Sequence record: PV730300.1
Length of the DNA stretch: 64,000 nucleotides
Direction: 5' to 3' (one strand)
Source: a phage
Shown here: positions 1 through 57,895 of the stretch, in pieces
Layout of the letters: every line of letters starts with the position of its first letter
Numbering within the stretch: position 1 is the first letter of the stretch
The notes under the pieces: generated by a model
Database searches by the model: none
What the model was told of the DNA's origin: nothing
What the model saw: the letters and a program-made list of their open reading frames with translations, nothing else
Position numbers and translations under genes: made by a program

Positions 1-20
1 CACAAGAAGAGAGAAAAATC

Positions 21-305
21 ATGAAAATCACAAAAAGCCTAACTAATTATGCAGCACGTCGCGGATTATGTTTAACCGTTGAAAACTTAGGGAAAGAAGA
101 CTTTTTGTGTTTTTGGGAGCTTGAAAATGATTGCGAGTGGATGTTTTCTTATTCTATCTGCGAAGATCAAAACGGTTGTTTGTTAACCTGTCGCGGTAAT
201 ATCTATTTACCGGAAGAAATTAAAGAAGAGTTACCAGGTACGATCATGACAGAGAGACAGCTTAAGGAAGTGATCAATTTTGTAGGGCAAAACATTAAAA
301 AATAA
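21..305 (+). CDS. hypothetical protein (94 aa)
   Basis: ORF track; ATG preceded by AGAGAAAAA; first gene of rightward array. Confidence 0.45.
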   Translation: MKITKSLTNYAARRGLCLTVENLGKEDFLCFWELENDCEWMFSYSICEDQNGCLLTCRGNIYLPEEIKEELPGTIMTERQLKEVINFVGQNIKK

Positions 306-306
306 T

Positions 307-336
307 TTGACAGTAGGCAAACAACGTAGTAAAGTT
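307..336 (+). promoter_or_regulatory. sigma70-like promoter (TTGACA-N17-TAAAGT)
   Basis: TTGACA at 307-312, TAAAGT at 330-335; followed by leader hairpin GAGCGGCGG...CCACCGCTC at about 346-369. Confidence 0.45.
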
Positions 337-390
337 TATTACATAGAGCGGCGGAATGGTCCACCGCTCACAACAGAAGAGAAACAAATC

Positions 391-561
391 ATGATCCCGA
401 CTATGTTTTATGTATCGCGCAAAGGTCACAATATTTTTTGGTCTGAAGATTTAAATGAAGCTATGACGTTTGCCCGTGATCGTGTTGCTATCGGTGGCGT
501 TAACATCACTGTAACCGATGAAAACGGCATTGAATACTATAACGGCGACGATGAAGAGTAA
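391..561 (+). CDS. hypothetical protein (56 aa)
   Basis: Track ORF 307..561 starts at a TTG that is the promoter -35 box; ATG at 391 follows GAGAAACAAATC. Confidence 0.4.
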   Translation: MIPTMFYVSRKGHNIFWSEDLNEAMTFARDRVAIGGVNITVTDENGIEYYNGDDEE

Positions 562-608
562 TTAATAAGGCGGGGGAGTATTCCCCGCCGTCAATAAAGA
601 GGTAAATC

Positions 609-878
609 ATGAAAATATCATTAGACGTTGCAATCAAGGCCATCGAATCCGGTTACATCCTGGTAAAAGATGATAAGGCTAAAATTGTGCACCACGTTAA
701 CAAGGAAACAGGCGAAAGCATGATCACATATAAAGCCGCCTATCTTCTCCAATCAGTAGCAGATCCGCGCGTACAGCGCCAGGTGACGGCGGCTATTGCT
801 AAAAAATTATGCGCTTTACAGGGTACAAGCTTTAACGAGATCGCCCCGTGTTTTGTCTGGTCAAGCTTGAAAAAATAG
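609..878 (+). CDS. hypothetical protein (89 aa)
   Basis: ORF track; RBS AAAGAGG upstream of ATG. Confidence 0.5.
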   Translation: MKISLDVAIKAIESGYILVKDDKAKIVHHVNKETGESMITYKAAYLLQSVADPRVQRQVTAAIAKKLCALQGTSFNEIAPCFVWSSLKK

Positions 879-906
879 TTTGACAACAGCCAATAATCTG
901 ATAAAG
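879..906 (+). promoter_or_regulatory. sigma70-like promoter (TTGACA-N16-TAAAGT)
   Basis: Same box architecture as promoter at 307; leader hairpin GGGCG...CGCCC at about 917-940. Confidence 0.45.
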
Positions 907-959
907 TGTACTACATAGGGCGGGGCAATAAGGCAACGCCCATTAATGAGGGTAAAATC

Positions 960-1064
960 ATGTTAGAGAAAATTTTCACGGTTGTAATAGTGGGCCTGGC
1001 GTTATCGGTTGGAGTGGTTGCAACTATGGCTAACATGATCCTATCTTCCCACGGTATCGGTTAA
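960..1064 (+). CDS. small hydrophobic peptide (34 aa, MLEKIFTVVIVGLALSVGVVATMANMILSSHGIG)
   Basis: Own translation; RBS GAGGG 8 nt upstream; below ORF-track size cutoff. Confidence 0.35.
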   Translation: MLEKIFTVVIVGLALSVGVVATMANMILSSHGIG

Positions 1065-1074
1065 GGTGAAACAA

Positions 1075-1290
1075 ATGATCACGAATAAGACAGGTAAAAC
1101 GGAATTTTTACGCGGCTTGCAAGTTGGTAAACCTAAGATCTGGCATTGTACTAAATCCGCGCATAATGAAATGAAAGATTTTACCGCTACTTTACAACGT
1201 GTTAAAATATCTATCACACAGAAAAAAGCCTTGTTAGTAGTAGAAAACGAGATCCCGCAAACCATTATCATTGTTGAGCGTACAGCATGA
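1075..1290 (+). CDS. hypothetical protein
   Basis: Track ORF 1066..1290 (GTG); ATG at 1075 after AAGGTG. Confidence 0.4.
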   Translation: MITNKTGKTEFLRGLQVGKPKIWHCTKSAHNEMKDFTATLQRVKISITQKKALLVVENEIPQTIIIVERTA

Positions 1291-1673
1291 AAACAGAAAA
1301 CATTAACGAAATGATCAACGGTTATATAGAAGCTTTTGTTTTTGCAGAAAGTGCAAGCTATTACAATGGCGACTATATCCCGGATCTGGCGAGGTTTGAT
1401 CTTTCTTCTCAAGCCCTGGACCGTATCGCGGACGATGTAACCGCCTTTATTAATGCTAATCTTACCGCTATCTTTGAGGCAATGAGCAACGGAGCAACAG
1501 CCAACCAGATCGGGAATGATTTACATTTCACCCGCAACGGGCACGGCGTAGGTTTTTGGGATCGCCCTGAAATATATACCCCTAACACGGCGAACCGCCT
1601 AACCAGTGCCGCCGAGGTCATGCCGGACGTGTCGGCTTACATTGGTGAAGATAATTTGATTTATATAGAATAA
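1287..1673 (+). CDS. hypothetical protein (128 aa)
   Basis: ORF track; ATGA overlap with upstream ORF. Confidence 0.5.
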   Translation: MKTENINEMINGYIEAFVFAESASYYNGDYIPDLARFDLSSQALDRIADDVTAFINANLTAIFEAMSNGATANQIGNDLHFTRNGHGVGFWDRPEIYTPNTANRLTSAAEVMPDVSAYIGEDNLIYIE

Positions 1674-1679
1674 AAAGTA

Positions 1680-1708
1680 TTGACACCGATCCCCAATATG
1701 TTACTATT
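1680..1708 (+). promoter_or_regulatory. sigma70-like promoter
   Basis: TTGACA at 1680-1685, TACTAT-like -10; leader hairpin GGCGGGA...TCCCGCC at about 1718-1739. Confidence 0.4.
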
Positions 1709-1762
1709 TACCACGTAGGCGGGAAAATGGTTTCCCGCCAGGTAATCAAAAAGGTAAACATT

Positions 1763-2152
1763 ATGCGCAACCTGGTTTCTGTTTCTAACGTTGAAAAATT
1801 TCAATCCTTGCAGGGTATCGTTAACAACGTAGCGCCTTTTTTAGTCAAAGGCTTGATTGTAAAGATGAAAAATAAACATCATACGGCATGGTCTGCTTAT
1901 TGCTTTGATAATGATGAAAAAGCGGCTGAAATGATGTTAAATATGCTTTTGGATAGTGTAGAATCATCTTTACCGGAAAACATCGCAGAAGAGATCACCT
2001 ATCGTTATAATACGGCGATCACCTTTCAGGAGGTTGCACAATTCAACATGCTGGACGATGACGAACAACAAGATCAGGAAATGTTTTGGGAGTACGCGGA
2101 TCGTCAAGCGGCTTTTGATGAAAAGTTAGCGATGTATTATAACGAATATTAA
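1763..2152 (+). CDS. hypothetical protein (about 129 aa)
   Basis: Track ORF 1727..2152; ATG at 1763 preceded by AAAAAGG. Confidence 0.45.
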   Translation: MRNLVSVSNVEKFQSLQGIVNNVAPFLVKGLIVKMKNKHHTAWSAYCFDNDEKAAEMMLNMLLDSVESSLPENIAEEITYRYNTAITFQEVAQFNMLDDDEQQDQEMFWEYADRQAAFDEKLAMYYNEY

Positions 2153-2170
2153 TACACGGTAAAAGAAAGG

Positions 2171-2194
2171 GGGCGCACAAAGCGCCCTTTTTTG
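2171..2194 (+). terminator. rho-independent terminator (GGGCGC-ACAAA-GCGCCC + T-run)
   Basis: Perfect 6-bp GC stem followed by TTTTTT. Confidence 0.6.
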
Positions 2195-2626
2195 TATTCT
2201 TTTTTCACGATGGAAACAACACGTAAAGAATAGGCGTAAAGGTGGCGTAAAGGTGGCGTAAAACCATCTAAAACCGACTGTAACCGCTTAAACAAGGTGG
2301 CAATGATTAATCACCTTACCAGGATGAAAAAGCCGTTATAAAGCTATCTAGAGCGTTTAAAGCACATGGGAAATAATTTGCTTTTTATCTTGCCTTTTAT
2401 TCTGCTTTTGATTATTATTATGGAACGGGCGGCACCTGGGGACAGGTGAAGATAATCACCGGAAGATCCCGCTATATATCGATAGCTAATACCTATCAAA
2501 CAACAAAACATCAAAGAGATAAACTATCAAATCTTTACAATCCTACATATTGACCGATAAATCACAACAGTTTAATATTGTTTTTAGAGGGTAGAACATA
2601 CCCAAAACGAAAACAGGAAAAAGAAA

Positions 2627-2863
2627 ATGAAAGAAGTCATGATCCTCAAAAAATCACCTATTTTACGTGGTGGCTTTATCGCTTACTCCGATGATCTGTT
2701 AATTGCAACGGTTGCAAAAATACTAAAATCAGAAGAGGATAGTAAAAACGGCGTTTATCGTATCTGTTTCACCCGTGGGAAGTTGCAAGGTAAGATCGCT
2801 TATGCTTTTGATTTACAAGATGTAAACGATAAAATATGCGCTGTTATTGATTATGCGAAATAG
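2627..2863 (+). CDS. hypothetical protein (78 aa)
   Basis: ORF track; isolated ORF inside otherwise non-coding region. Confidence 0.35.
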   Translation: MKEVMILKKSPILRGGFIAYSDDLLIATVAKILKSEEDSKNGVYRICFTRGKLQGKIAYAFDLQDVNDKICAVIDYAK

Positions 2864-2927
2864 TTAATTTTCTTATTGACACCGGATCTACTCAATATAT
2901 GAAGCGTTATAATTGACAACAAAACAA

Positions 2928-2955
2928 GGGGGCGCACAAAGCGCCCTTTCTTTTT
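2928..2955 (+). terminator. rho-independent terminator (second copy of GGGGCGCACAAAGCGCCC hairpin)
   Basis: Near-identical hairpin to 2171-2194 followed by T-rich tract. Confidence 0.5.
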
Positions 2956-4537
2956 GCCCGAAAAATGTTGATAGCTTTCGCCTATGAAAAACCGACACAG
3001 AGCAAAACTGAATAAATCACGGTATCAAGCTAATCAACCATCAAATGAATAACCATACACCCCAGGGCAAAAGGCCGTCAGAGAGCTATTTATAGCGTTT
3101 AAAATCGATCAACAGCCAACAACAAACCATCAAAAACACCCTTTTACCTCCTTTCTAGTGCAATGATAACCATTATCATCTACCCATGATTATCTATGCA
3201 ATATAAGCGCATAGTTATAGTGTTGATAATAGTTCGCAACAACTAACCAACAAACAACATAAAACAATAAGCAAACTAATCATAATCAAAGGAATAATAG
3301 CAAGATGATTGATAACGGCAAACAATTAAACCGTGATGAATAGTAAGCAAAATAACGATAACACGACAAAACAACCAACTAACGAACAATAACAAACGAA
3401 ACCATTAAAATAATAACTATTGCCATAATAGTAACTGAATGAAATCATTACAAAACAAATCATTCCCAGGATCATCATTAGCACGCTATGCCGGACACAT
3501 AGCGAGCTAATAATAAGCCAACTACACCCCAACAATCATAACCATCGGTGATGGTTATTTCTTGTTACTGCGTAGCTTGCAATAATTGCAAGCGTAATGA
3601 CGCTTACACTTATTGCGCTGGCTTATTATTAGCATTATATGTAATTACCAAGATCATAACATTAGCGCAATAACAATAATCATTGTAATGGTTACAATAT
3701 GAAATCATTAGCAAGATGAATAATTGCACGTAGCAACATGAGCGAATAGCGACAGGTTGCATAGTGTGCACATAATAGAATAAAAGTCAATAATTTTGGG
3801 GGCGAAATGTTACCGCCAGGGGCGGGAATGTTGAGCACTAAGAAAAGAGATAAACCTTAATCATGGGGGGCGTAAATATCCGAGGATTGCCAACGGCGAT
3901 CCGGTAGGATGTTGAGCAAGTTCTCTTAAACGTAAATAAAATCAGAAAATTCTTGATTTATTTTAGTTTTTATGTTAATAAACGTTTAAATAATAATCAT
4001 TCTCATATAGATAATAGTCTGCTTGTCATGAGCGGGATCGGTTGACATTGTTCCGTCATATGATGAAGTTGCCAAACCATTGATAAATAAGTGTTTGTGT
4101 GATTTATAATCAAATGGCCCACCTTGTCGCTATGTTGGTATGAGCCTTGCATAAGTCATTGAATACAAATGATAATTATTCTCATTCGCATGATATTTGG
4201 GAATTGTCGCTGCGTGGACCTGACGGCCCGAAAATTCGCGTTAAGCACTTCTTACGTATGCGCCATGATTTTTGCCATATTATATTGATTCTATTAGATA
4301 TTCTTGCCATGATTGCCATGAAACAGGGTGTCCCGAAATAATCTCTCCCCGTAGATATTTTGGGTTACTTTTTATACAAGAGTAGGGTGTCAAAAATAAT
4401 CGGTATATATGGGATAATTGATAGGAATCCCCTATGATAATTCGATTGTAATTCCCTGAGATTGATCGTATGATGTTGGTAGATGTTAGTGATTGATGAT
4501 TGCCATGAAAGATGGCTAACGATGAGAGGAGATTATC

Positions 4538-4942
4538 ATGCAAGAGAGTAAAAATGTTCCGTTGAGCAGTATAGTATTGCTTCGATTCTACAAAGCATGG
4601 ATGGCTGATCACTTCAGTATGGATCGCACGAAGAATGGTCTGTGCAATTGTCTTATCAATTTCCTAGCCTCAACACTGCAACCTGAAAATCCGACAGAGG
4701 ACCAATGGATAACCTACTTGAAGGTGCGTAATAAGATTGTAAGAGAGATGAAATCTCAATTCATTTGTGCAAACCTGTCTTATGTCTTTCCATTTAACAT
4801 GGGATTCAAAGATTACGAAGACGAAACCAGATACAAAAGATGCCATGAAAATCCCCTCCGTGTGCAATGGGTGGAGGACAGAATTCAAGATTGTTTGAAT
4901 AATTATGAGGAGGTGTTATGCGAACAAAACAAGTCTCATTGA
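4538..4942 (+). CDS. hypothetical protein, member of 6-copy paralog family (GLCxCL / PFN / HxNxxRxxWVKD motifs)
   Basis: ORF track; RBS GAGAGGAG; shares motifs with ORFs at 4918, 8176, 11505, 14349, 15654. Confidence 0.55.
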   Translation: MQESKNVPLSSIVLLRFYKAWMADHFSMDRTKNGLCNCLINFLASTLQPENPTEDQWITYLKVRNKIVREMKSQFICANLSYVFPFNMGFKDYEDETRYKRCHENPLRVQWVEDRIQDCLNNYEEVLCEQNKSH

Positions 4943-5283
4943 GTAGTACGATGTTGTTGATGTTTTATAAAAGGTGGTTGGAAGGAGATACCTCCCTTAA
5001 TCTCACAGAGCACGGGTTGTGTTTATGTATTAATCATTTTGTGCGAAGTCATTATGCAAAGGATGTGCACAGTCCCAGATGGTATGATGACATGGTGAAC
5101 AGTTTGTTATATGAAATGCGCAAGCAATTTGAAGAAGCTGGTCTTAGTGCTATTAATCCATTTAACAAAGTATATGCAGATTACTTCCTTGAAGTTGAGA
5201 ACAAAATGTGTCATCTGAACCCGCTTCGCATTCAATGGGTGAAAGATCGTATTGAAGATGCAAATAATGCTTGCATTGAATAA
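4918..5283 (+). CDS. hypothetical protein, paralog family member
   Basis: LCLCI, NPFN, CHLNPLRIQWVKDRI motifs shared with 4538 ORF. Confidence 0.55.
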   Translation: MRTKQVSLSSTMLLMFYKRWLEGDTSLNLTEHGLCLCINHFVRSHYAKDVHSPRWYDDMVNSLLYEMRKQFEEAGLSAINPFNKVYADYFLEVENKMCHLNPLRIQWVKDRIEDANNACIE

Positions 5284-5342
5284 AAATGTCTGTATGATGG
5301 TTTGCATACCGCGCATAACAGATAGCCAATGAGGAGATTGAA

Positions 5343-5552
5343 ATGTCAAATATGAAAACTGTATCCTTGTATTTAGCTAACACTGATCGTGTGCACACCC
5401 TTGCTAACGCAAGTCGTGTACTCGTGCAGTTCCGAAACTTCGCACCGTCCGTTGTGACGGGTAGTGAAACGTGTGTGATCGATTTCATCAATGAATATTT
5501 CTACGGGAATCCTGTTGCTCGTCACTTCGTGGAGAATATGAAAGATGCATAA
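5343..5552 (+). CDS. hypothetical protein
   Basis: ORF track; RBS GAGGAG. Confidence 0.45.
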   Translation: MSNMKTVSLYLANTDRVHTLANASRVLVQFRNFAPSVVTGSETCVIDFINEYFYGNPVARHFVENMKDA

Positions 5553-5775
5553 CATGAAACGCATGAAAATTCGTATTGAGAATGATGGTGGTTATAAAGG
5601 ACTTATCCATGCAAAATTTCCACTTGTGTTGGAAGCTACGGTGGAATACAGTGGGCTTGCTCATGTGCGATTCTCGAAGATGATGGAAGTGCAGGAGTGG
5701 TTTTGGGACGAGATAGATGCACGAGAAGGGGAAGATTATGTTTTCTTTCCTCACGAATATGAAATTGTCTATTAA
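5545..5775 (+). CDS. hypothetical protein; paralog of 8886..9107 (shared EWFxxExxxxEGxDYVFF C-terminus)
   Basis: ORF track; C-terminal similarity to 8886 ORF. Confidence 0.5.
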   Translation: MHNMKRMKIRIENDGGYKGLIHAKFPLVLEATVEYSGLAHVRFSKMMEVQEWFWDEIDAREGEDYVFFPHEYEIVY

Positions 5776-5778
5776 AGG

Positions 5779-6027
5779 TTGTGTGCAATGATCACACCAC
5801 AACAGAATGAAGCAGCAATGGATCTTCTTGATAGTTTGTATTTCGATAATTGGTACTCTGAATGTGAATGGATGAATATGCAAACTCTGAAAGAGAAAAC
5901 AGAAGCGTTGATTACAGTAGATCAATTTCTTGCAGAGACGGAAAGAATGAACTATGATATGGCATCTCGCGCACGACGCGTTTCCATTTTCAATAAAATG
6001 TTAGCATTATGGGGAGGTAGAAAATGA
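5779..6027 (+). CDS. hypothetical protein
   Basis: ORF track. Confidence 0.45.
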   Translation: MCAMITPQQNEAAMDLLDSLYFDNWYSECEWMNMQTLKEKTEALITVDQFLAETERMNYDMASRARRVSIFNKMLALWGGRK

Positions 6028-6485
6028 GACAATTCACTATACTGGCAGCTTATGTGCAATGTGTTCACGATTATGTTAGTGCTCATATAGGTTTGCTGGA
6101 AGTTAATAGTAAAATTGAAGGCAATGTGGGTACTGTCTATGTGCAACATACTTTATCTATCGTGCCGTTTAAAGTGTTCAGTGTTGTAGCTGCCGATTAC
6201 AATCGTGTAGATGTGTGTTTCTTGGATCATAATTTTCGTAACGCACTAGATAATATCGAAGATTATCTTCCCGTGAAACCTTTGTCATTTCCACCGAGTC
6301 GTGCAAATAATGTAGTGACAAACCTTAATGAAAGGAATGTGGCTATGCACAAAAAAGTCCGTCAACTGAAAATGCTGATGGAAATGCAAGAAGAGATTGA
6401 AAAAGAACTGAAAGAAGATTTTGGTATGCTTCCAAAAGACGCTTTGAAATGGTATGATGAACTAGGAAGAGAAAGTTATGAATAA
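6024..6485 (+). CDS. hypothetical protein (153 aa)
   Basis: ORF track; ATGA overlap. Confidence 0.5.
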   Translation: MRQFTILAAYVQCVHDYVSAHIGLLEVNSKIEGNVGTVYVQHTLSIVPFKVFSVVAADYNRVDVCFLDHNFRNALDNIEDYLPVKPLSFPPSRANNVVTNLNERNVAMHKKVRQLKMLMEMQEEIEKELKEDFGMLPKDALKWYDELGRESYE

Positions 6486-6672
6486 AGGAACTACTGTATA
6501 TTTAGTAACAAAGAATACCCCAGGCTGGAGCCAATGCAGCACTGTCCCTTACAAGATCTGTGCAACATTAGAACTAGCACAACGTGCAGAAGCAGAAGTG
6601 GATGCCATGCGATACAGCTACGGTGAAATCATTCCTTTCACTCTTGAACAAGAAGGAGCATACAATGTTTAA
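6478..6672 (+). CDS. hypothetical protein
   Basis: ORF track. Confidence 0.4.
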   Translation: MNKGTTVYLVTKNTPGWSQCSTVPYKICATLELAQRAEAEVDAMRYSYGEIIPFTLEQEGAYNV

Positions 6673-12985: not shown

Positions 12986-13198
12986 ATGAAGGCACATTAC
13001 CCTCATCCCTTTGATCCTAAAAACAAAGCCGTAATTCTTCGTCAGTGGCAACGGGTTTGTCGTACTAAATGTCCAATTAATAGCCAACACGATGTGGACA
13101 AGGACTATCTTGGGACATTTGTTGAATACACTTACATAGACAAAAACAAGCGTAAACAACATGTCGAGGAATACTGCTTAAGAGTAGAATGGCTGTAA
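12986..13198 (+). CDS. hypothetical protein
   Basis: ORF track. Confidence 0.45.
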   Translation: MKAHYPHPFDPKNKAVILRQWQRVCRTKCPINSQHDVDKDYLGTFVEYTYIDKNKRKQHVEEYCLRVEWL

Positions 13199-13210
13199 AT
13201 AATAAATACC

Positions 13211-13239
13211 TTGACAAGTGTTTATTCGTTTTGTAAAGT
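13211..13239 (+). promoter_or_regulatory. sigma70-like promoter (TTGACA-N17-TAAAGT)
   Basis: Same -10 hexamer as promoters at 307 and 879; upstream of recombinase gene. Confidence 0.45.
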
Positions 13240-13268
13240 GAGAATACAGCAATGGTTTAGGAGTGGTT

Positions 13269-13940
13269 ATGAAAAAGTTTGTTGTTTACAGTCGTCTTTC
13301 TAAACAGAAAAAAGGTGAGGCACAATATGGTATGGAGAGCCAAGAGAACGATATCCGTTACTTCTTAGACTCTGTGCCTGATGCGGAAGTTATTGGTCAA
13401 TTTTCTGAATACTATTCGGGTAAGGGCGATTGGAAGCAACGTAAAGAACTGGTTAAAGCGGTTGAAATGTGTAAAGCTACCGGAGCAACTTTATTGGTAG
13501 CTAAAGTTGACCGCTTGGGTCGTAACAACGCCTCCGTAGCAACTCTTCTGGAGATGATCAATGTTAAGATAGCCATCATGCCAGACGCAGATAAAATGGT
13601 TATACAGCTTCTATCTGTTCTGGCTGAACAAGAAGTTAGAGGTATTGCTGATCGTATTAAAAAGGGTCTTGCTGTAGCAAAAAGTAAAGGTGTTTTATTA
13701 GGTAGTGCTAATCCTAAAACTGCCGCTGCACGTAGAAAAGGAAAAATGGAATACAACTCTGTTAAAGCAGATGCTTTTGCAGAGACATTCCGTGAACGCT
13801 TGGAGATCCTTAGAGATTTAAATACACCTTACAAAACTATTGCTGAAAAATTCAATAGTAAGAAAATAGCAACAGCACGTGGTGGTAAATGGGATGCTAA
13901 AACTGTTTCTCGTTTGTGTGCCAGACTTAACATTAAATAG
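13269..13940 (+). CDS. serine recombinase (resolvase/invertase family) with C-terminal HTH
   Basis: YSRLSKQ catalytic-Ser region, VAKVDRLGRN, EQEVRGIADRIKKGL motifs typical of small serine recombinases. Confidence 0.65.
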   Translation: MKKFVVYSRLSKQKKGEAQYGMESQENDIRYFLDSVPDAEVIGQFSEYYSGKGDWKQRKELVKAVEMCKATGATLLVAKVDRLGRNNASVATLLEMINVKIAIMPDADKMVIQLLSVLAEQEVRGIADRIKKGLAVAKSKGVLLGSANPKTAAARRKGKMEYNSVKADAFAETFRERLEILRDLNTPYKTIAEKFNSKKIATARGGKWDAKTVSRLCARLNIK

Positions 13941-13948
13941 GAGAGGAT

Positions 13949-14359
13949 ATGAAACAAGAAAATGAATCTGTAGATCACTTAATCATGCTGTCAGCCCTTT
14001 TTGCCGGATGGGACGTATTTTTTGAAAATTTGTTCAATTCTGCTACAGATGGTTCCGATTTTATGCGGCAGTTTAAACGACGAACTGTTGAGGACTATGC
14101 TTTCTATTCAGGTCGGATTGAAAAAGGTTACGAAGATACAAATACAACACTCACCATTAAAGTTTTAGATGTGATGTTTAGTGTTATAGATGCTATCGAC
14201 GAAAGTCTTCCGATCCTAGACAATTGTAATACGAAAGCCTATGTTTACAAAATAGCTCGTGCTTATGTGTCTGCAAACAGTTGTCTTCTTTCCACCCAGA
14301 TTGCCGTGAACAATCTTGCCAACTTGTTTGATGAAGGAGAAACTTTTTATGACAATTGA
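13949..14359 (+). CDS. hypothetical protein
   Basis: ORF track; RBS GGAGAGGA. Confidence 0.5.
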   Translation: MKQENESVDHLIMLSALFAGWDVFFENLFNSATDGSDFMRQFKRRTVEDYAFYSGRIEKGYEDTNTTLTIKVLDVMFSVIDAIDESLPILDNCNTKAYVYKIARAYVSANSCLLSTQIAVNNLANLFDEGETFYDN

Positions 14360-14714
14360 TTTGAAGTGTAAGAGGATTCTTTTAGATTTCTATAATAATT
14401 GGTTAGAACACCTCCGTCTTTTTCCAAGAGAAAGTGGTTACGCTGATGTTGGCTTATGCCGAGGTCTACGTATGTATATAAGTGATGAATTTCGGGCCGA
14501 GCATTCTTTAGCATATTCTGTTTATGGTATGCAATTAGCCAGTTTTGAAAACGCTGGTTTAGATACAACTTTCCCATTTAACACAGCAAAATCTTTTGAG
14601 CAAGAGTGTAAGGAAAAACGTTGCATGTTTAATGAAAAACGTGTACAGTGGGTTAAGGATCAAGTTAAACAATTGGAACAAGAGTTGGATTTCTTTTATG
14701 ATGAGGCAGAATAA
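14349..14714 (+). CDS. hypothetical protein, paralog family member (GLCRGL, FPFN, RVQWVKDQ)
   Basis: Track ORF 14316..14714; ATG at 14349 after GAAGGAGAA. Confidence 0.5.
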   Translation: MTIDLKCKRILLDFYNNWLEHLRLFPRESGYADVGLCRGLRMYISDEFRAEHSLAYSVYGMQLASFENAGLDTTFPFNTAKSFEQECKEKRCMFNEKRVQWVKDQVKQLEQELDFFYDEAE

Positions 14715-14986
14715 TGGATAGACAAACCTTAAAAACAATGGCAGATGCTACTAATTCCCCGTACTTTGAAAAAGTAAGTAAATTGGTAGCTCAAGCCGCA
14801 GAGGAAGGATATTATAACATAAACATCCACAACCCAAGTCTTATACTAGAAATGCCAAGTGATAAGAAGATGCAAGAAAGTATCTGTGAAGGTATTGTTA
14901 GTTACTGGCGCGAGCGTGGGTGTGGTGCAAACATGGCTTTAGACAGTGCAAACATTGTAAGATATATAAATATTTCTTGGGGGTGA
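14714..14986 (+). CDS. hypothetical protein
   Basis: ORF track. Confidence 0.45.
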   Translation: MDRQTLKTMADATNSPYFEKVSKLVAQAAEEGYYNINIHNPSLILEMPSDKKMQESICEGIVSYWRERGCGANMALDSANIVRYINISWG

Positions 14987-14990
14987 TTTT

Positions 14991-15602
14991 ATGATTCAAT
15001 GCACTCATATCCAAATTACTTGGAGAGATGAACTTTACCATTTGGGACAATTTACTGTAGGGGAAACATACCCTATCATTAAACATAATCCTAACATCGT
15101 AAACTTTGACAGGATGGTTCTTGTTGAGGATGATCTAGGTCAAACTTATTCTTTAGATCTAAAATGTCCGTTTTCTTACGGCTACGATTGGATCGTTACT
15201 TTTGAAGACGTGGAGGAAAATAAAACAATGAACGAAAAAAATTCTTGGTATTATCGTTGTGAACTGCCGCCAGTAGGTGAAAAGGTTATCTTTGTTCCTG
15301 ACTTGGAAAGATATTCTTGGGACAGTTCTTATTCTATTCCTAAAGAAGGCACCGAAGTTGAAGTTATTGCACATCGCACAACTTCGCATGGTAACGATGT
15401 AGCAGTTGTTTTCTGGGATGATGAAGGCGCTGCTTGTGCAGGTGGCTTTGTTGCAGGTAATTTTGAACCCCTGCCAGATCCTTTGAAGGAGGCAATTTTA
15501 GGCGTAGCTTCTTTTGGACTCTCTTACACGTCTGCACAGGAGATCGTAGAAGGTATTTTAAACGGTACCGTTCCAAACGAAATTTTCAAACAGATTAAAT
15601 AA
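14991..15602 (+). CDS. hypothetical protein (203 aa)
   Basis: ORF track. Confidence 0.5.
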   Translation: MIQCTHIQITWRDELYHLGQFTVGETYPIIKHNPNIVNFDRMVLVEDDLGQTYSLDLKCPFSYGYDWIVTFEDVEENKTMNEKNSWYYRCELPPVGEKVIFVPDLERYSWDSSYSIPKEGTEVEVIAHRTTSHGNDVAVVFWDDEGAACAGGFVAGNFEPLPDPLKEAILGVASFGLSYTSAQEIVEGILNGTVPNEIFKQIK

Positions 15603-15608
15603 CAGTTG

Positions 15609-15633
15609 CACCCCGTTCTTCGGGGTGTTATTG
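15609..15633 (+). terminator. rho-independent terminator (CACCCCG-TTCTT-CGGGGTG + T-rich)
   Basis: 7-bp GC-rich stem directly after 14991 CDS. Confidence 0.5.
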
Positions 15634-20426: not shown

Positions 20427-20455
20427 AAAGGCACCCACTTGGGTGCCTTTGTTTT
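20427..20455. terminator. bidirectional terminator at convergence of rightward and leftward blocks
   Basis: GGCACCC-ACTT-GGGTGCC hairpin flanked by T-runs on both strands. Confidence 0.55.
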
Positions 20456-20769: not shown

Positions 20770-21585
20770 TTATTTGTTTAAGTGGTCTTCGACCATTTTA
20801 ATGAAACCTTCATTGCTGAAGGCTGTTGCAGCTTTTTCTCGGTAAACAAAAACTCCACGATCTTCATAGAGAAGTGTTTCTTCGTAATTAACTCCAGGGT
20901 TAACTACAACCATTTTTGTACCCATACTAAGCGCAGGGAATAATTCCCAATTAAAATTGATAACTTGGTTTGAACATCCTACTACTACAACCAAATCTTG
21001 CATGGTCAAAGTATCGAACAAGTGAGCCATATCTGCATACAAAGGTGCAGCCTCACCAAAAAATACAACATTAGGCTTCACCCAGTTATAATCATCTATG
21101 TTTATACTATTGTAACCAATATCTACCAGTGTTTTGTAATCTCCAGGATGCATACGGTAAACTACTTCAGGGAGATATCCGTGCACGTGAATAACAGAAT
21201 CTCTGTCTACACCTGCTCGCTCTAGTAGATCATCAACGTTTGTTGTCAAGTTTACTATTTGGTTAGGATATTCCTTAAACCATTTTGCTATTTGAATATG
21301 TGCAGCATTAGGTTGTACATCTTTAAGTTCAACACGCCTTTTGTTATAAAATTCGTGTGTTTTGGCATACAAATCCATACCGTTCTCGTCTACACCACCG
21401 ACCACCGGAAGATCTGGAGATGTTCTAACACGATAACCTGCCTGGAAAGCTCCAATATCGCAGACCTCTTCTAAATCATATTCTTCCCATAAGGCACGAC
21501 CACTATCGGTGTCTGTTCGGAATGTTCTAATCCCACTATCTGCACTTAAACCTGCACCGCTTACAAAAATCACTCGTCTTGGCAT
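20770..21585 (-). CDS. Sir2-family (sirtuin-like, NAD-binding) protein lacking the zinc ribbon
   Basis: GAGLSADSGIRTFR, NVDDLLERAG, HVHG, VVVVGCS motifs; no CxxC pairs; RBS GAGGAGG. Confidence 0.7.
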   Translation of the reverse strand: MPRRVIFVSGAGLSADSGIRTFRTDTDSGRALWEEYDLEEVCDIGAFQAGYRVRTSPDLPVVGGVDENGMDLYAKTHEFYNKRRVELKDVQPNAAHIQIAKWFKEYPNQIVNLTTNVDDLLERAGVDRDSVIHVHGYLPEVVYRMHPGDYKTLVDIGYNSINIDDYNWVKPNVVFFGEAAPLYADMAHLFDTLTMQDLVVVVGCSNQVINFNWELFPALSMGTKMVVVNPGVNYEETLLYEDRGVFVYREKAATAFSNEGFIKMVEDHLNK

Positions 21586-26136: not shown

Positions 26137-26627
26137 AAAACCTCCTCAATCTTGTAGTTTGACTCCATCTCCAACACATTTCCACGAACGTCTCTCCGAA
26201 GAAAGGCATAAGCTTTATTAGGTATTGTAGACTCATATTTAACCATATCTGGCACAGCAAAAGATACTACTACTCCTGCTGGGCTTCTGTCAAGAGCCTT
26301 ATTAATATTTCTAAGGATATCGTTAGCCAAGATTTCTGCCAATTCTCCAAGAACAGTTTCGGTTATATCTTTATATCCCATTAAGTATTTGTTGATATCT
26401 TTCATCTCTGTATTGTTCAGAGTATAGTCCAAAGGATAGAAATTCAAAGCGGAGTCACTTTTATGTGTCCACATGAAATGCACCCGATCAGAGCAGAATC
26501 GTAACCCTCTGTGAAGAATATCTTCTACAACAGGGAGAATTTCTTTTGTTACATCATTAACCATGTTGTAATCTAAGATTTCTGCCAAGTTTGTTCTTTG
26601 TTCACCACGTTTACGTTTAGGAATCAC
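26115..26627 (-). CDS. hypothetical protein (170 aa)
   Basis: ORF track. Confidence 0.45.
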   Translation of the reverse strand: MIPKRKRGEQRTNLAEILDYNMVNDVTKEILPVVEDILHRGLRFCSDRVHFMWTHKSDSALNFYPLDYTLNNTEMKDINKYLMGYKDITETVLGELAEILANDILRNINKALDRSPAGVVVSFAVPDMVKYESTIPNKAYAFLRRDVRGNVLEMESNYKIEEVLWQSSDQ

Positions 26628-41857: not shown

Positions 41858-42433
41858 CTAACTTTCAATTTCCTGCAATAGGATTTTGACTATTTGTTTA
41901 CGGCGTTTTGCTACTGTGCTTTCAGGTTCTATTTTACGCTTCTTCAACCAAGCCTTATCTTTCTTAGCTCTACACAAAGCTATCGCTTCTTTTTCAGCTT
42001 TTGCTTCTTCAAAAGATATGCCTTGCTTGTCTGCATAAGCAAGAATAGAGTTGCACAATTTACAAACCATTCGCAAATCTTCTTCTTTCACATAGATCAA
42101 ACGGAAAACAAAAAGAGGGATATCATCAAAACATTGAAGTTGTTTTGCTGCGTGAATATGATCCACTTGGAAGTCTTTCATTCCTCCTCTATGTCCACAT
42201 ATTTCGCACTCACAATTCCAAACTTGTTTTGGTTTTCCAGTTTTCTTATCTATCATTACATTGCCGTCTTTATCTACACGATCAACTTTAAAACGCCTTG
42301 CATTGATAACCTTAATTTTATTAGGGTGTCTCATCCATGCTTTTCTAAAGCATCCCCTAAGATAAGTATAAAATTCAGCTTGTGTTTTCCAGGGTGTTCC
42401 TTCACCCCACATTATTTTTGGTTCACCTGCCAA
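41858..42433 (-). CDS. HNH endonuclease (free-standing, homing-type)
   Basis: CECEICGH ... QVDHIHA ... CKLCN HNH zinc-finger nuclease pattern. Confidence 0.6.
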   Translation of the reverse strand: MAGEPKIMWGEGTPWKTQAEFYTYLRGCFRKAWMRHPNKIKVINARRFKVDRVDKDGNVMIDKKTGKPKQVWNCECEICGHRGGMKDFQVDHIHAAKQLQCFDDIPLFVFRLIYVKEEDLRMVCKLCNSILAYADKQGISFEEAKAEKEAIALCRAKKDKAWLKKRKIEPESTVAKRRKQIVKILLQEIES

Positions 42434-42656
42434 TATTGCTCACCTTTTTAGCTGTATATTCCCCTGGTGGGATATTGTGTTTAAAAAACAAAAGGCGGTC
42501 TAACCCAGCCTTGCACATTGTTTCTGGAATAGTCAAAGTTAGTAAAAGTTTATCACCTTTTCGGTTGAATATTTTATAAACTTCTCCTGCTCCATATTGT
42601 TTAGTATTACTCGCCACTAATACGTTCCTTAAGTTGTTTAATAGCTTCGATTGCAT
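42423..42656 (-). CDS. hypothetical small protein (start uncertain)
   Basis: ORF track; overlaps both neighbours, true start probably internal. Confidence 0.25.
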   Translation of the reverse strand: MQSKLLNNLRNVLVASNTKQYGAGEVYKIFNRKGDKLLLTLTIPETMCKAGLDRLLFFKHNIPPGEYTAKKVSNIGR

Positions 42657-43002
42657 CTACATAAGAAGAGTTATACATGTGTTTCAGTGCTACTCGTACT
42701 AAAGGATCTTTTGTGAAGAAATCAATAAGAAGCATAGCTTGATCATGTTTAGCTGCATTTGTCATAGATGGATAATTTTCACGAACCATATACGTGTTAT
42801 TTTGCATAAGGGTTCTTTCTAGTTCAATACAATGAATAGCTTTATCTAGGTTAATCTGACGTTCACCTTTGATACGTGTTGCGTATTTTGCCAATTTGCA
42901 AAAACAAGGTGTGCCACCAACCAAATAAGCTAGTTCAATAGGTTGCATTGCCATTTTTGTGTAGTGATCACCGTCAACCTGATTATCAAAAGCATTAGAC
43001 AT
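42607..43002 (-). CDS. DUF3310-like phage protein
   Basis: N-terminal QVDGDHY...MQPIE motif as recalled for DUF3310; unverified. Confidence 0.35.
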   Translation of the reverse strand: MSNAFDNQVDGDHYTKMAMQPIELAYLVGGTPCFCKLAKYATRIKGERQINLDKAIHCIELERTLMQNNTYMVRENYPSMTNAAKHDQAMLLIDFFTKDPLVRVALKHMYNSSYVDAIEAIKQLKERISGE

Positions 43003-43258
43003 AATTTTCCTCCTGAATTCCTACTGCGCCGTCTTCTGGGTAGTCTGTATAATAAGCTACCCTACCTTGATAGATAACATCACCATCGCTATTGTAGATT
43101 GCTGTATCTTCTTGAATTGTTATTTCAACGTCAAGTAAATCTGGGTCTTTCTCGATGGTATAGTTCAAACCTAACATTTCAAACAGTTCGAAAATTTCGT
43201 TACCTGTTAATGTAATGCTCATATTTCCTCCTTTTATTGTGGTTAGCAGAGTATACAC
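42995..43258 (-). CDS. hypothetical protein
   Basis: ORF track. Confidence 0.4.
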   Translation of the reverse strand: MYTLLTTIKGGNMSITLTGNEIFELFEMLGLNYTIEKDPDLLDVEITIQEDTAIYNSDGDVIYQGRVAYYTDYPEDGAVGIQEENYV

Positions 43259-43308
43259 TAATATAAAATTTTTGTCAATAAAAAAGGGAGCAATAAGCTC
43301 CCTGATTA

Positions 43309-54719: not shown

Positions 54720-54975
54720 ATCTATTAACGAGCGCAGCGAGTTAAGGTTTTAGGTTGTTGATGTAGTACTCTGTACTCAAGTACTGTACTCCGTACTAGA
54801 TTAATAATTATTAAATATTAATAATAAATAATTATTAGATCTAACAAACAGGTACAGTGTATCAGAACTGGTACGTACAGATCAACTTCTATCAATTAAA
54901 AATAAAATAATAAATTATTATAAATAATACTTGATCTATAGATCAGTATGAAGTACAGTACGGAACATCTTAACA
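54720..54975. promoter_or_regulatory. divergent control region with GTAC-rich imperfect inverted repeats flanking an AT-rich palindromic core
   Basis: Five GTACT repeats at 54764-54799, AATAATTATT palindromes, GTACAGTACGG arm at 54950-54965. Confidence 0.4.
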
Positions 54976-55969: not shown

Positions 55970-56044
55970 GGCCCTGTAGCTCAATGGGAGAGCTGTCGGC
56001 TCATAACCGATAGGTAGCTGGATCGAAACCAGCCAGGGCCACCA
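55970..56044 (+). tRNA. tRNA-Met (anticodon CAT; could be lysidine-modified Ile2)
   Basis: Manual cloverleaf: 7-bp acceptor GGCCCTG/CAGGGCC, loop CTCATAA, encoded CCA. Confidence 0.65.
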
Positions 56045-56046
56045 AC

Positions 56047-56121
56047 GTCTTTATGGTGTAATGGATAGCACAGGAGTCTTCTAAACTCTTAGTCAAGGTT
56101 CGATTCCTTGTAAAGACACCA
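56047..56121 (+). tRNA. tRNA-Arg (anticodon TCT)
   Basis: Manual fold: loop CTTCTAA, T-arm CAAGG-TTCGATT-CCTTG, CCA end. Confidence 0.65.
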
Positions 56122-56317
56122 GAACATTTTAACATGAATTAGCTCAAGTGATTTGAACCCACTACTGATCATGGTGGCAGAGAATGAGGCAAGTATGTCA
56201 GACATTATAAACAAAGGCCACGGTTATATTAGAAGACATAAATGCTCGAAGAGCACCGTTCGTTGAGAACGGGGGTTGGTGGAGTCACCATTCATGGTAA
56301 AATGTTTTAAAAAACTA

Positions 56318-56346
56318 TTGACAACTAACATTATTTTATGTTAGAT
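56318..56346 (+). promoter_or_regulatory. promoter (ACTATTGACAA box) internal to tRNA cluster
   Basis: TTGACA-N17-TTAGAT immediately upstream of tRNA-Ser. Confidence 0.45.
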
Positions 56347-56355
56347 TATAAGTAT

Positions 56356-56446
56356 GGAAGGGCAAATCGACGTGGCGACGAAAACGGTCTTGAAAACCGC
56401 CGAGCTTGAAAGAGCCTTGGGAGTTCGACTCTCCCTCCTTCCGCCA
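56356..56446 (+). tRNA. tRNA-Ser (anticodon TGA), type II
   Basis: CGGTCTTGAAAACCG anticodon arm matches E. coli tRNA-Ser(UGA); long variable arm; G73; CCA. Confidence 0.6.
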
Positions 56447-56451
56447 GATTA

Positions 56452-56537
56452 GGTAGATTGGTGAAATGGTAGCCACGACAGTTTGCTAAACTGTAGTCGG
56501 AAACGGCGTGTAGGTTCGAGTCCTACATCTACCGCCA
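56452..56537 (+). tRNA. tRNA-Ser (anticodon GCT), type II
   Basis: Acceptor GGTAGAT/ATCTACC, loop TTGCTAA, long variable arm, G73, CCA. Confidence 0.6.
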
Positions 56538-56667
56538 AGTTCTTTTTAATATAGCTTACTTTAATAGAGTAAACTTTCGGCAGATGGCCCCCACCATCTT
56601 ACCGATAACTCATAGTTAGTGGTGTGAACACTGGCTATTTTAAAAAGAATTTAAATATTAGTATTTA

Positions 56668-56755
56668 GGTGAGTTAATTCCGTAGGGGTAGCGGGGCAGA
56701 CTGTAAATCTGTTATCATTGCGATTCGGGTGGTTCGACTCCATCACTCACCACCA
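56668..56755 (+). tRNA. tRNA-Tyr (anticodon GTA), type II
   Basis: GCAGACTGTAAATCTG anticodon arm as in E. coli tRNA-Tyr; A73; CCA; D-arm atypical. Confidence 0.55.
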
Positions 56756-56761
56756 AATTAA

Positions 56762-56847
56762 GATGAGTTGGCTGAATGGTTTAAGCGGCGGACTGTTAAT
56801 CCGTGTTCGAAAGAACGATATAGGTTCAAATCCTATACTCATCGCCA
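56762..56847 (+). tRNA. type-II tRNA (long variable arm, G73) with GTT anticodon (Asn codons); identity uncertain
   Basis: Perfect 7-bp acceptor, loop CTGTTAA, variable arm GTTC-GAAA-GAAC, T-arm ATAGG-TTCAAAT-CCTAT, CCA. Confidence 0.55.
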
Positions 56848-56852
56848 GAATT

Positions 56853-56932
56853 ATGGACTTGTAGAGTTAAGGTAAACCCCCAGTCGCCAAGAGGCTTCTG
56901 AAATTGCAGGTATCGAATCCTGCCGAGTCCCA
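56853..56932 (+). ncRNA. tRNA-like element, isotype unresolved (possible degenerate tRNA)
   Basis: Acceptor-like GGACTTG/CGAGTCC and T-arm-like GCAGG-TATCGAAT-CCTGC but no canonical anticodon arm found. Confidence 0.25.
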
Positions 56933-56937
56933 GCTTT

Positions 56938-57012
56938 GCTCCTATAGTATAATGGCTATTACAACGGTTTTGTAATCCGTGGATCTCTGTTCGATTCAGA
57001 GTGGGAGCACCA
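56938..57012 (+). tRNA. tRNA-Thr (anticodon TGT)
   Basis: Acceptor GCTCCTA/TGGGAGC, loop TTTGTAA, T-arm CTCTG-TTCGATT-CAGAG, CCA. Confidence 0.6.
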
Positions 57013-57287
57013 ACACAACATTAAGAGCACTGTGATTGATCGTCGTATCCTGTGCACAAGGTCTGTTCGAAAGACAGTGTTCTTAGTATTGTGTTGATCA
57101 CACAAAAAGAGTTACCTGAAACTTGACCGGAGTAGGGTTGGATGGGGCAAAAGAAGAAGCGGCTCTCCCATCGACAGCAACGAAGAATAATATTTGACTT
57201 TGGTTTTGTATTATTTTAAGTTAGCTTACCGAACGTAGGGCTAGTCACCCAATGGGATACTCGTCACTGTCCCACTCAATAAAACTA

Positions 57288-57317
57288 TTGACAACCAATA
57301 GTAAAATGTAGTATAGT
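57288..57317 (+). promoter_or_regulatory. promoter (ACTATTGACAA box) internal to tRNA cluster
   Basis: TTGACA-N18-TATAGT upstream of tRNA-Gly. Confidence 0.45.
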
Positions 57318-57328
57318 AAAGATGTAGG

Positions 57329-57402
57329 GCGTTCTTGGTGTAGCGGTAGCATTCCGTCCTTCCAAGTCGGCGGCACGAGTTCGATCCTCGTAGAACGCTC
57401 CA
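57329..57402 (+). tRNA. tRNA-Gly (anticodon TCC)
   Basis: Loop CTTCCAA as in E. coli tRNA-Gly(UCC); T-arm ACGAG-TTCGATC-CTCGT; CCA. Confidence 0.6.
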
Positions 57403-57499
57403 AATTATTTAATAAAGGGTTGCCAGAAAACTTTCTCTTTTACTCATGGTTTTCTCCTTCTCTCACACCTCTTCTGGTTGCCCTTCATTAAATGATTTA

Positions 57500-57575
57500 T
57501 TGGTTTGTAGTGTAGTCCGGTAGCACACGACACTTTGACTGTCGTAGGTTTGGTTCAAATCCAGACAGACCAGCC
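57500..57575 (+). tRNA. tRNA-Gln (anticodon TTG)
   Basis: Anticodon arm CGACA-CTTTGAC-TGTCG; T-loop TTCAAAT; CCA. Confidence 0.6.
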
Positions 57576-57580
57576 ATATA

Positions 57581-57657
57581 ACGGAATTTAGCTCAGTTTG
57601 GTAGAGCATACGCTTTGGGAGCGTAGGGTCGCAGGTTCGAATCCTGCAATTCCGACC
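57581..57657 (+). tRNA. tRNA-Pro (anticodon TGG)
   Basis: Acceptor CGGAATT/AATTCCG; arm TACGC-TTTGGGA-GCGTA; T-loop TTCGAAT; CCA. Confidence 0.65.
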
Positions 57658-57663
57658 AATTTA

Positions 57664-57737
57664 ATGTTTCGTAGTTCAATGGTAGAACCCACGACTGATA
57701 ATCGTGAGACACAAGTTCGATTCTTGTCGAAACAACC
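57664..57737 (+). tRNA. tRNA-Ile (anticodon GAT)
   Basis: Acceptor TGTTTCG/CGAAACA; arm CACGA-CTGATAA-TCGTG; T-loop TTCGATT; CCA. Confidence 0.65.
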
Positions 57738-57741
57738 AGTT

Positions 57742-57811
57742 TCCCGTTAGACTTACAGGATAAGAGTTCCACAGCTTATTGTGATGCTGGTTCGAATCCA
57801 GCACGGGATAC
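57742..57811 (+). ncRNA. tRNA-like element, isotype unresolved
   Basis: T-arm GCTGG-TTCGAAT-CCAGC and acceptor-like TTCCCGT/ACGGGAT but anticodon arm not resolvable by eye; no CCA. Confidence 0.3.
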
Positions 57812-57816
57812 CTAAT

Positions 57817-57895
57817 AGCGGGATAGAGGAGTCTGGTCGTCCTCGCCAGTTTCATATGCTGGAGATCATCGGTTCGAATCCGATTCCCGCCTCCA
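57817..57895 (+). tRNA. tRNA-Met-like (anticodon CAT) with A1-C72 mismatch
   Basis: Arm CCAGT-TTCATAT-GCTGG, T-arm ATCGG-TTCGAAT-CCGAT, CCA; first acceptor pair unpaired. Confidence 0.5.

Follow-up and report, generated by a model that had tools for sequence, protein, structure and literature searches.

Serine recombinases of the resolvase/invertase superfamily act as dimers that recognize a short site of dyad symmetry, and synapsis of two such complexes yields a tetramer. The serine nucleophile cleaves both DNA strands with a 2-bp stagger, leaving 5'-phosphoseryl links; one half of the tetramer then turns by 180 degrees before the ends are rejoined. In the large serine recombinases, zinc-ribbon and coiled-coil domains set attP/attB selectivity and directionality. 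Here, we analyzed a gene of this superfamily in a stretch of phage DNA of 64,000 nucleotides (PV730300.1; hereafter, the window, which denotes the whole stretch).

The window belongs to the genus Phapecoctavirus (phAPEC8-like, Stephanstirmvirinae) and is about 98.7% identical over 4 kb to vB_EcoM_DE16. The gene belongs to strictly lytic phages of E. coli; the genus is annotated as virulent, which agrees with the virulent appearance described in the initial annotation of this DNA. The same protein, at 99% or more identity, occurs in 63 GenBank phage records. Its identity as a serine recombinase is already in public records, where the labels read 'serine recombinase' (MH051333), 'DNA invertase' (PQ571289), 'recombinase family protein' (OP595145) and, in further records, 'resolvase'. 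In records such as LR597654 and OR062526, the recombinase match falls on a feature mislabeled 'methionine ABC transporter ATP-binding protein'. The 70-aa ORF upstream of the gene (12986–13198) is labeled 'putative ABC transporter ATP-binding protein' in phage nieznany; we regard both labels as annotation noise. For the orthologue of the Justusliebigvirus/phi92 type (phi92 gp053), which is about 57% identical and does not differ in length or architecture, the annotation reads 'putative recombinase, resolvase family protein / DNA invertase'. In the literature, we found annotation-level remarks on the gene and no functional study, and no experimental characterization of its plasmid and phage relatives. 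According to a speculation in the SKA64 paper (PMC10282059), the function of the enzyme is to keep concatemers as single genomes.

Architecture of the gene and its protein

The Pfam model PF00239 'Resolvase, N-terminal domain' matches aa 5–142 of the protein with 66.1 bits (E 4.6e-18; gathering threshold, 23.3 bits), and the 223-aa protein matches PHROG 125 'DNA invertase' with an E value of 1.5e-32. Among PDB sequences, the Tn3 and gamma-delta resolvases match best (E about 1e-5), followed by Sin and Gin. In an alignment of 26 homologues with identity down to 31%, Y7, R9, S11, Q25, R58, D81, R82, R85, and E120 are invariant. The predicted nucleophile is Ser11, alongside the active-site set R9, D81, R82, and R85; R9, S11, D81, R82, and R85 are equivalent by position to R8, S10, D67, R68, and R71 of gamma-delta resolvase. 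This correspondence argues that the chemistry is intact, and the recombinase appears, from its sequence, to be catalytically competent. The AlphaFold2 model (pLDDT 88.4) has an alpha/beta catalytic fold, a long E helix (residues 109–139), and four further helices, and Foldseek gives a probability of 1.00 for its match to Bxb1 integrase, Sin, Tn3 resolvase, and TP901-1 integrase. Collectively, sequence and model indicate with high confidence that the product is a small serine recombinase of the resolvase/invertase superfamily. The initial annotation had placed such an enzyme at 13269–13940; the assignment held, and the coordinates were exact. Among the curated NCBIfam families, the YneB, XisF, Mpi, and CcrB models all score far under their cut-offs (for the Mpi invertase, 22.7 bits against a cut-off of 272), which places the protein outside every curated named family.

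In the C-terminal part, the match to PF07508 'Recombinase' is weak and below the cut-off (aa 187–216, 30 residues, E 0.003). PF07508 is also precomputed for the homologue clusters P0073, P0074, P0078, P0082, and P0087. The model has four short helices after helix E, and its longest Foldseek structural alignment, also the top match, is that to Bxb1 integrase. No Pfam match to HTH_7 or to a Hin-type HTH was obtained at an E value of 1 or less. By sequence and model, the C-terminal module resembles the start of the 'Recombinase' domain of large serine recombinases, to which it appears to be related, and not the HTH of Hin or the resolvases. The relatives show full-length homology with the same length and architecture, and, judged on these features, the protein is a member of an experimentally uncharacterized clade of about 220 aa that is both plasmid- and phage-borne. 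The protein database holds 93 homologue clusters, mostly of about 210–260 aa and many from contigs of about 150 kb, and the recombinase is 99% identical to cluster P0001. As a compact, large-serine-recombinase-like enzyme, it may be of interest as a tool.

The intergenic region 5' of the gene is only 70 bp and holds the promoter and one weak dyad. The promoter matches 10 of the 12 consensus positions, so that the early promoter reported in the initial annotation is borne out as a consensus match. TTGAC(A/T) promoter-like elements also lie upstream of the homologue in the phages Paula, FBKp34, phiWec188, and ICP1. The arms of the dyad are complementary at 10 of the 14 positions, with the core AATAAATAC-8-GTGTTTATT at 13201–13226. 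No second copy of this dyad occurs in the window when up to 3 mismatches are allowed, and its inverted-repeat score is not above that of shuffled sequences (z 0.1). Read by eye, the promoter of Paula contains a dyad with this geometry (11 of 14 positions, not significant), and the phiWec188 and FBKp34 promoters have none. We consider the dyad of the window a candidate operator or recombinase site. The first terminator-like hairpin lies only downstream of four further ORFs (Table 1), which suggests that the recombinase probably heads an early transcription unit of five ORFs, whose members would be cotranscribed.

Table 1. Features of the recombinase locus (positions in the window unless another record is named)
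Feature	Position	Strand	Basis or remark
Weak imperfect dyad, 14 + 8 + 14 nt, centered on -35	13196–13231	.	Read from sequence
Sigma-70-type promoter, TTGACA (13211–13216), 17-nt spacer, TAAAGT (13234–13239)	13211–13239	+	Consensus scan
Ribosome-binding site AGGAG	13259–13263	+	5 nt spacing to ATG; sequence
Serine recombinase CDS, 223 aa + stop	13269–13940	+	ORF call, PF00239, PHROG 125, model
Start ATG; stop TAG	13269; 13938–13940	+	Sequence
Catalytic domain and helix E, aa 1–146	13269–13706	+	PF00239, invariant residues, model helix
C-terminal helical DNA-binding module (predicted), aa 147–223	13707–13937	+	Weak PF07508, model helices, Bxb1 alignment
Alternative C-terminal module	phiWec188 (L008) 3439–3675		Equivalent to window 13707–13937
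ORFs 3' of the recombinase	13949–14359, about 14350–14714, 14714–14986, 14991–15602	+	ORF list, nieznany annotation
First terminator-like hairpin downstream of the recombinase	15608–15628	+	Terminator scan

Several features lie elsewhere in the window. Positions 1–6500 (nieznany 50–57 kb) hold very small ORFs separated by repeated hairpin-plus-motif units (e.g., GCGGCACCATTGCCGCCCTAC... and AAAGGGGGCGCACAAAGCGCCC), a repeated terminator/promoter architecture. At 3780–3915, the motifs AATGTTGAGCA/GATGTTGAGCAA recur in a G+C-rich noncoding stretch. In at least 10 related GenBank records (e.g., Schickermooser, BI-EHEC, and Mt1B1_P17), the start or end of the record matches 3909–3926, which suggests a physical genome end or packaging start. 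A conserved 40-nt family, D1 (CATTTGAAT...GGGTAAAAGA), is found in four early ORFs (at 5212, 8422, 11769, and 15930) and marks a paralogous small-gene family, VOG7392 in nieznany, whose members are dispersed over the early region. A bidirectional terminator hairpin (20427–20450) separates the + strand early genes from the - strand genes that converge on them, and judged by the annotation of relatives, the first large - strand gene (20770–21585) encodes a Sir2-like NAD-dependent deacetylase. At 54760–54880, five GTACT repeats with a start-to-start spacing of 5–8 nt are followed by an AT-rich near-palindrome of roughly 36 bp (TAATAATTATT...AATAATTATTA) and then by GTAC-containing motifs. By its correspondence to nieznany, this region appears to be the divergent intergenic region between two transcription arms, and it looks like an origin or regulatory hub. 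Ten tRNA genes (Met, Arg, Ser, Asn, Thr, Gly, Gln, Pro, Ile, and Met) form a cluster on the + strand at 55970–57895.

Selection, decay and mobility of the gene

Over the first 146 codons, the window and phiWec188 share 82% DNA identity and 94% protein identity, with a dN/dS of 0.033. Based on this comparison, the catalytic domain is under strong purifying selection, and a decayed remnant is unlikely because of this low ratio. The gene is intact in 63 of the 65 Phapecoctavirus records with this allele, and the remaining two represent one phage, Schickermooser (NC_048196.1, L009, 11302–11602, equivalent to window 13269–13590). Its allele has six deletions (1, 1, 7, 1, 2, and 7 nt) that are clustered in a stretch of about 190 nt, all inside the first 230 nt of the gene, and the flanks of the deleted stretch are about 99% identical. 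The deletions reflect either a targeted loss of function or a local sequence-quality problem. Since Schickermooser is viable with the decayed allele, the gene is probably dispensable, with the limit that this is one record only, in which a sequencing or assembly error is possible. A decayed allele in phAPEC8 was also considered and rejected; the DNA search shows that of Schickermooser only.

The homology to phiWec188 starts about 10 nt upstream of the -35 element and runs through codon 146. Beyond this point, the C-terminal module is about 29% identical, and homology returns only for the last 15 nt. The alternative C-terminal module is common to phiWec179, 181, 186, 188, and 190 and PsgM04F. 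The flanking genes of the window and phiWec188 are unrelated. Furthermore, Justusliebigvirus (Paula) and Klebsiella phage FBKp34 carry the gene between the homologues of nieznany genes 53 and 55, a slot that belongs to the other transcription arm and holds an unrelated small gene in nieznany. The ICP1 homologue (30% identical) lies between the former gp30 and gp41, in a stretch without earlier gp names that we read as variable between isolates. Because the homology starts at the promoter and both the flanks and the slots differ, the moving unit comprises the promoter and the gene. No conserved partner gene was found; the immediate neighbors in the window, Paula, FBKp34, phiWec188, and ICP1 are unrelated except for Paula_0013 and its FBKp34 counterpart FBK_001, and the most widespread neighbor family occurs in only 7 of 75 IMG/VR loci. 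The initial annotation had offered a remnant of a mobile element as one explanation of the gene. As decay, this is made unlikely by the dN/dS value, but as a movable promoter-plus-gene module with another slot in Justusliebigvirus, it stands.

Cognate site and proposed function

We compared plasmid and viral homologues and their upstream regions. In IMG/VR, there are at least 486 relatives, and their contexts are very diverse. In PLSDB, 121 plasmid records carry homologues with under 60% identity, 114 of which cover at least 80% of the query, and the best rows show 35–40% identity at 94–99% coverage. Among the carriers are non-mobilizable 5.8–6.4-kb plasmids of Klebsiella, Marinovum, and Synechococcus with little beyond replication/partition genes. 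On such small plasmids, the usual role of a serine recombinase is multimer resolution. Inverted repeats are enriched upstream of 78 homologues relative to 377 neighboring-gene controls (Mann–Whitney p 3e-5 to 5e-5). For example, the Klebsiella plasmid relative has the dyad TATCATTTGTTTGCCG-aa-CGGCAAATTTATGATA at -67, and the L077 relative has the dyad GTACAAATGCTTGA-8-TCAAGTATTTGTAC. These upstream dyads of the relatives are single within +/-2.5 kb, and by analogy, a gene with a lone upstream dyad would correspond to the arrangement of single-site systems, with res or att beside the gene and exchange between copies. Compared with the relatives that have a single upstream dyad, the window gene has only its weak dyad. 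The upstream inverted-repeat z is 1.0 or less in all five large lytic phages (the window, Paula, FBKp34, phiWec188, and ICP1), and about one-quarter of the distant relatives score higher than these five. We found no convincing cognate site in this phage.

The relatives on small plasmids and phage contigs with a lone upstream dyad point to a single-site resolvase mode for the phage enzyme as well. The promoter and gene would form a self-contained module that host RNA polymerase probably transcribes early in infection. The product, a competent small serine recombinase, would attack DNA through Ser11 as described for the superfamily and might recombine one site per genome copy, comparable to plasmid res/resolvase and P1 lox/Cre. 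As an outcome, replicated or co-infecting genomes would be monomerized or exchanged, an accessory function that would raise fitness and not be essential. We put forward this reading, an accessory promoter-plus-gene module acting as a single-site, resolvase-like recombinase, with moderate confidence. The interpretation offered in the initial annotation holds in part, and of its three suggested roles, the resolution of replication multimers is the most plausible in view of the homology to the recombinases of 6-kb plasmids. The weak dyad, not above shuffles and not conserved in the phiWec188 and FBKp34 promoters, speaks against the resolvase reading. It is also not obvious why a virulent phage would need to resolve multimers when its DNA is packaged from concatemers. 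A further argument against this reading is that the predicted DNA-binding module differs between alleles, so that the targets may differ as well and need not lie on the phage.

Alternatively, the gene might be selfish or relic cargo, either a mobile promoter-plus-recombinase cassette that persists through its own spread or the leftover of an ancestor that was integrative or a plasmid; in both cases, the phage would gain nothing from it. Its different genomic slots in sister genera, its own promoter, the very diverse viral contexts of its relatives, and the decayed Schickermooser allele are all consistent with such an origin. However, the strong purifying selection and an active site that is invariant across the clade indicate sustained selection (although selfish elements also conserve activity), the gene is kept in essentially every Phapecoctavirus record, and neither flanking repeats nor element ends are recognizable. 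Collectively, we regard selfish or relic cargo as unlikely.

Another explanation is that the recombinase is directed against the host or competitors, as an early weapon that rearranges DNA outside the phage genome, such as invertible or excisable host prophage or defense loci, satellites, or co-infecting phages. The host-type promoter, with probably immediate expression, would suit this role, and the phage has no recognizable cognate site, whereas relatives have clear dyads. Moreover, the predicted DNA-binding module is swapped between alleles that are otherwise about 94% identical. The position of the ICP1 homologue in a variable stretch also fits. Host Pin-type serine recombinases are reported to change phage adsorption through the inversion of cryptic prophage DNA (PMC12529663), and small serine recombinases have been reported to be linked to defense islands (PMC13552941), which we count in favor of a host-directed role. 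This evidence is purely circumstantial, however; a host target was not found, a PADLOC search gave no match for the recombinase, and the neighbors of the homologues are too diverse for a shared system. Taken together, a host- or competitor-directed recombinase is distinctly unlikely. A related proposal, in which the substrate lies off the phage genome and the enzyme is an immediate-early countermeasure that rearranges host, prophage, satellite, or rival-phage DNA, is slightly more doubtful still. If it were true, invertible loci controlling receptors or defense might, for example, be locked or flipped, and the exchange of DNA-binding modules between alleles would be the trace of an arms race over targets.

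Only one feature of the locus is genuinely odd: it lacks the clear dyad of the plasmid and other phage relatives, and for this reason the host-directed reading retains some probability. There is also a mild puzzle, namely that a whole virulent subfamily keeps a recombinase under strong purifying selection although no target is apparent. Knowledge of the target would tell whether site-specific recombination serves lytic phages in processing their genomes or in acting against the host.

Inversion, integration and comparison with known systems

The initial annotation had also suggested that the enzyme might invert a host-range segment, in the manner of a Gin/Cin/Hin-type invertase that flips tail-fibre genes, for example, and thereby alternates the host range. 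The PHROG 125 label 'DNA invertase', a name also used by some GenBank records, favors this possibility, and phages of the subfamily carry several tail fibres according to annotation. For the repeats expected at the borders of such a segment, we searched the window and the complete genome of phage nieznany (98.6% identical), which was assembled and compared with itself; no invertible segment was found in either. In the window, inverted-repeat pairs do not exceed chance, apart from terminator hairpins. In nieznany, inverted matches of 20 nt or more consist of terminators, an AT-rich palindrome, and one match with an E value of 1.1 only, and shorter matches are at chance level. A 17-nt exact inverted match (nieznany 42375–42391 and 26267–26283), which sits in the gene downstream of the recombinase and in a DNA methyltransferase gene, was rejected as chance, with a genome-wide E value of 1.1 and an exchange that would break both genes. 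The nieznany 'repeat_region' features near the gene are two unrelated 44-mers and not a repeat pair.

The arrangement of the related genomes argues against inversion as well. Each of the 60 best related records has the 23.5-kb tail-fibre module at a single, collinear position, and the early region keeps its order, too, except for record permutation (in records whose ends it does not cross). In nieznany, the recombinase gene (42626–43297) is about 59 kb from the tail-fibre module (from 102597). The comparison with Gin, Cin, and Hin, which had been proposed as a check, likewise gave no Hin-type HTH, and the Gin structures are weaker sequence matches than the resolvases; the low Mpi score points in the same direction. 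The context of a Pseudomonas prophage homologue (37% identical), which follows tail genes, has no invertible segment and is uninformative. Collectively, the other results largely refute the invertase reading, and we consider it very improbable.

Discordant orientations of the early arm and the tail module are found in WPEC2 and WPEC6. The WPEC2 junctions have no common motif and cut through ORFs, and one of them duplicates exactly 77 bp (nieznany 86018–86094). Recombinase activity was rejected as the cause of the WPEC2 rearrangement, which looks like a scaffolding artifact; the 77-bp duplication is read as an assembler k-mer overlap. The WPEC2 record (PV691511.1, loci L011–L013) is scrambled relative to every other Phapecoctavirus, and two of its junctions carry one sequence of about 60 nt in opposite orientations; its sister records WPEC1, WPEC4, and WPEC6 also show extra places in the search tables.

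An integrase for a hidden lysogenic or carrier state is equally improbable: some distant relatives do lie near prophage-like contig ends or beside terminase genes, but the protein is without the zinc-ribbon and coiled-coil domains of serine integrases, repressor and excision genes are not annotated in the complete relative nieznany, and the gene DNA has no match in 5,426 complete E. coli genomes and thus gives no sign of an integrated state there. The recombinase is neither an inversion switch nor a lysogeny integrase. Since Phapecoctavirus phages are considered for use in therapy and biocontrol, this matters in practice: any recombinase is flagged by screening pipelines as a lysogeny risk. 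For this gene, the flag is probably a false alarm because it encodes neither an integrase nor a phase-variation switch.

Compared with Gin, Cin, Hin, and Pin, the enzyme is likewise a phage-carried small serine recombinase and shares the PHROG label. In contrast, the Hin-type HTH, the inverted crossover sites, and the invertible segment of those systems are absent here, and orientation polymorphism is not seen among the relatives of this phage. For P1 Cre/loxP and plasmid multimer resolution, the likeness is a functional analogy only, namely the proposed single site per replicon beside a non-essential recombinase gene; Cre is a tyrosine recombinase, and a lox- or res-like site in this phage is a candidate at most.

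The gamma-delta/Tn3 and Sin resolvases share with the phage protein the catalytic domain, the E helix, and the active-site residues, and the catalytic cores superpose. The inferred logic would also be similar, with a site beside the gene that is recombined between copies. However, the HTH_7-type C-terminal domain of these resolvases is not present in the phage protein. Furthermore, the multi-subsite res of Tn3 and gamma-delta (three subsites, about 114–120 bp) is not found at the phage locus, and the phage gene has neither a transposase in its flanks nor transposon ends, whereas the Tn3/gamma-delta resolvases come with both. The stretch from the nucleophile to the conserved Gln is longer in the phage protein than in resolvases, as in the large serine recombinases. 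The latter have 400–700 aa with a full Recombinase domain, a zinc-ribbon, and a coiled-coil, whereas the phage protein has 223 aa and lacks most of the Recombinase domain, the zinc-ribbon, and the coiled-coil. Nevertheless, it shares with Bxb1, phiC31, A118, and TP901-1 the N-terminal motif with the extended S...Q spacing, and with the large serine recombinases more generally the weak PF07508 match and a model for which Bxb1 gives the top and longest Foldseek match.
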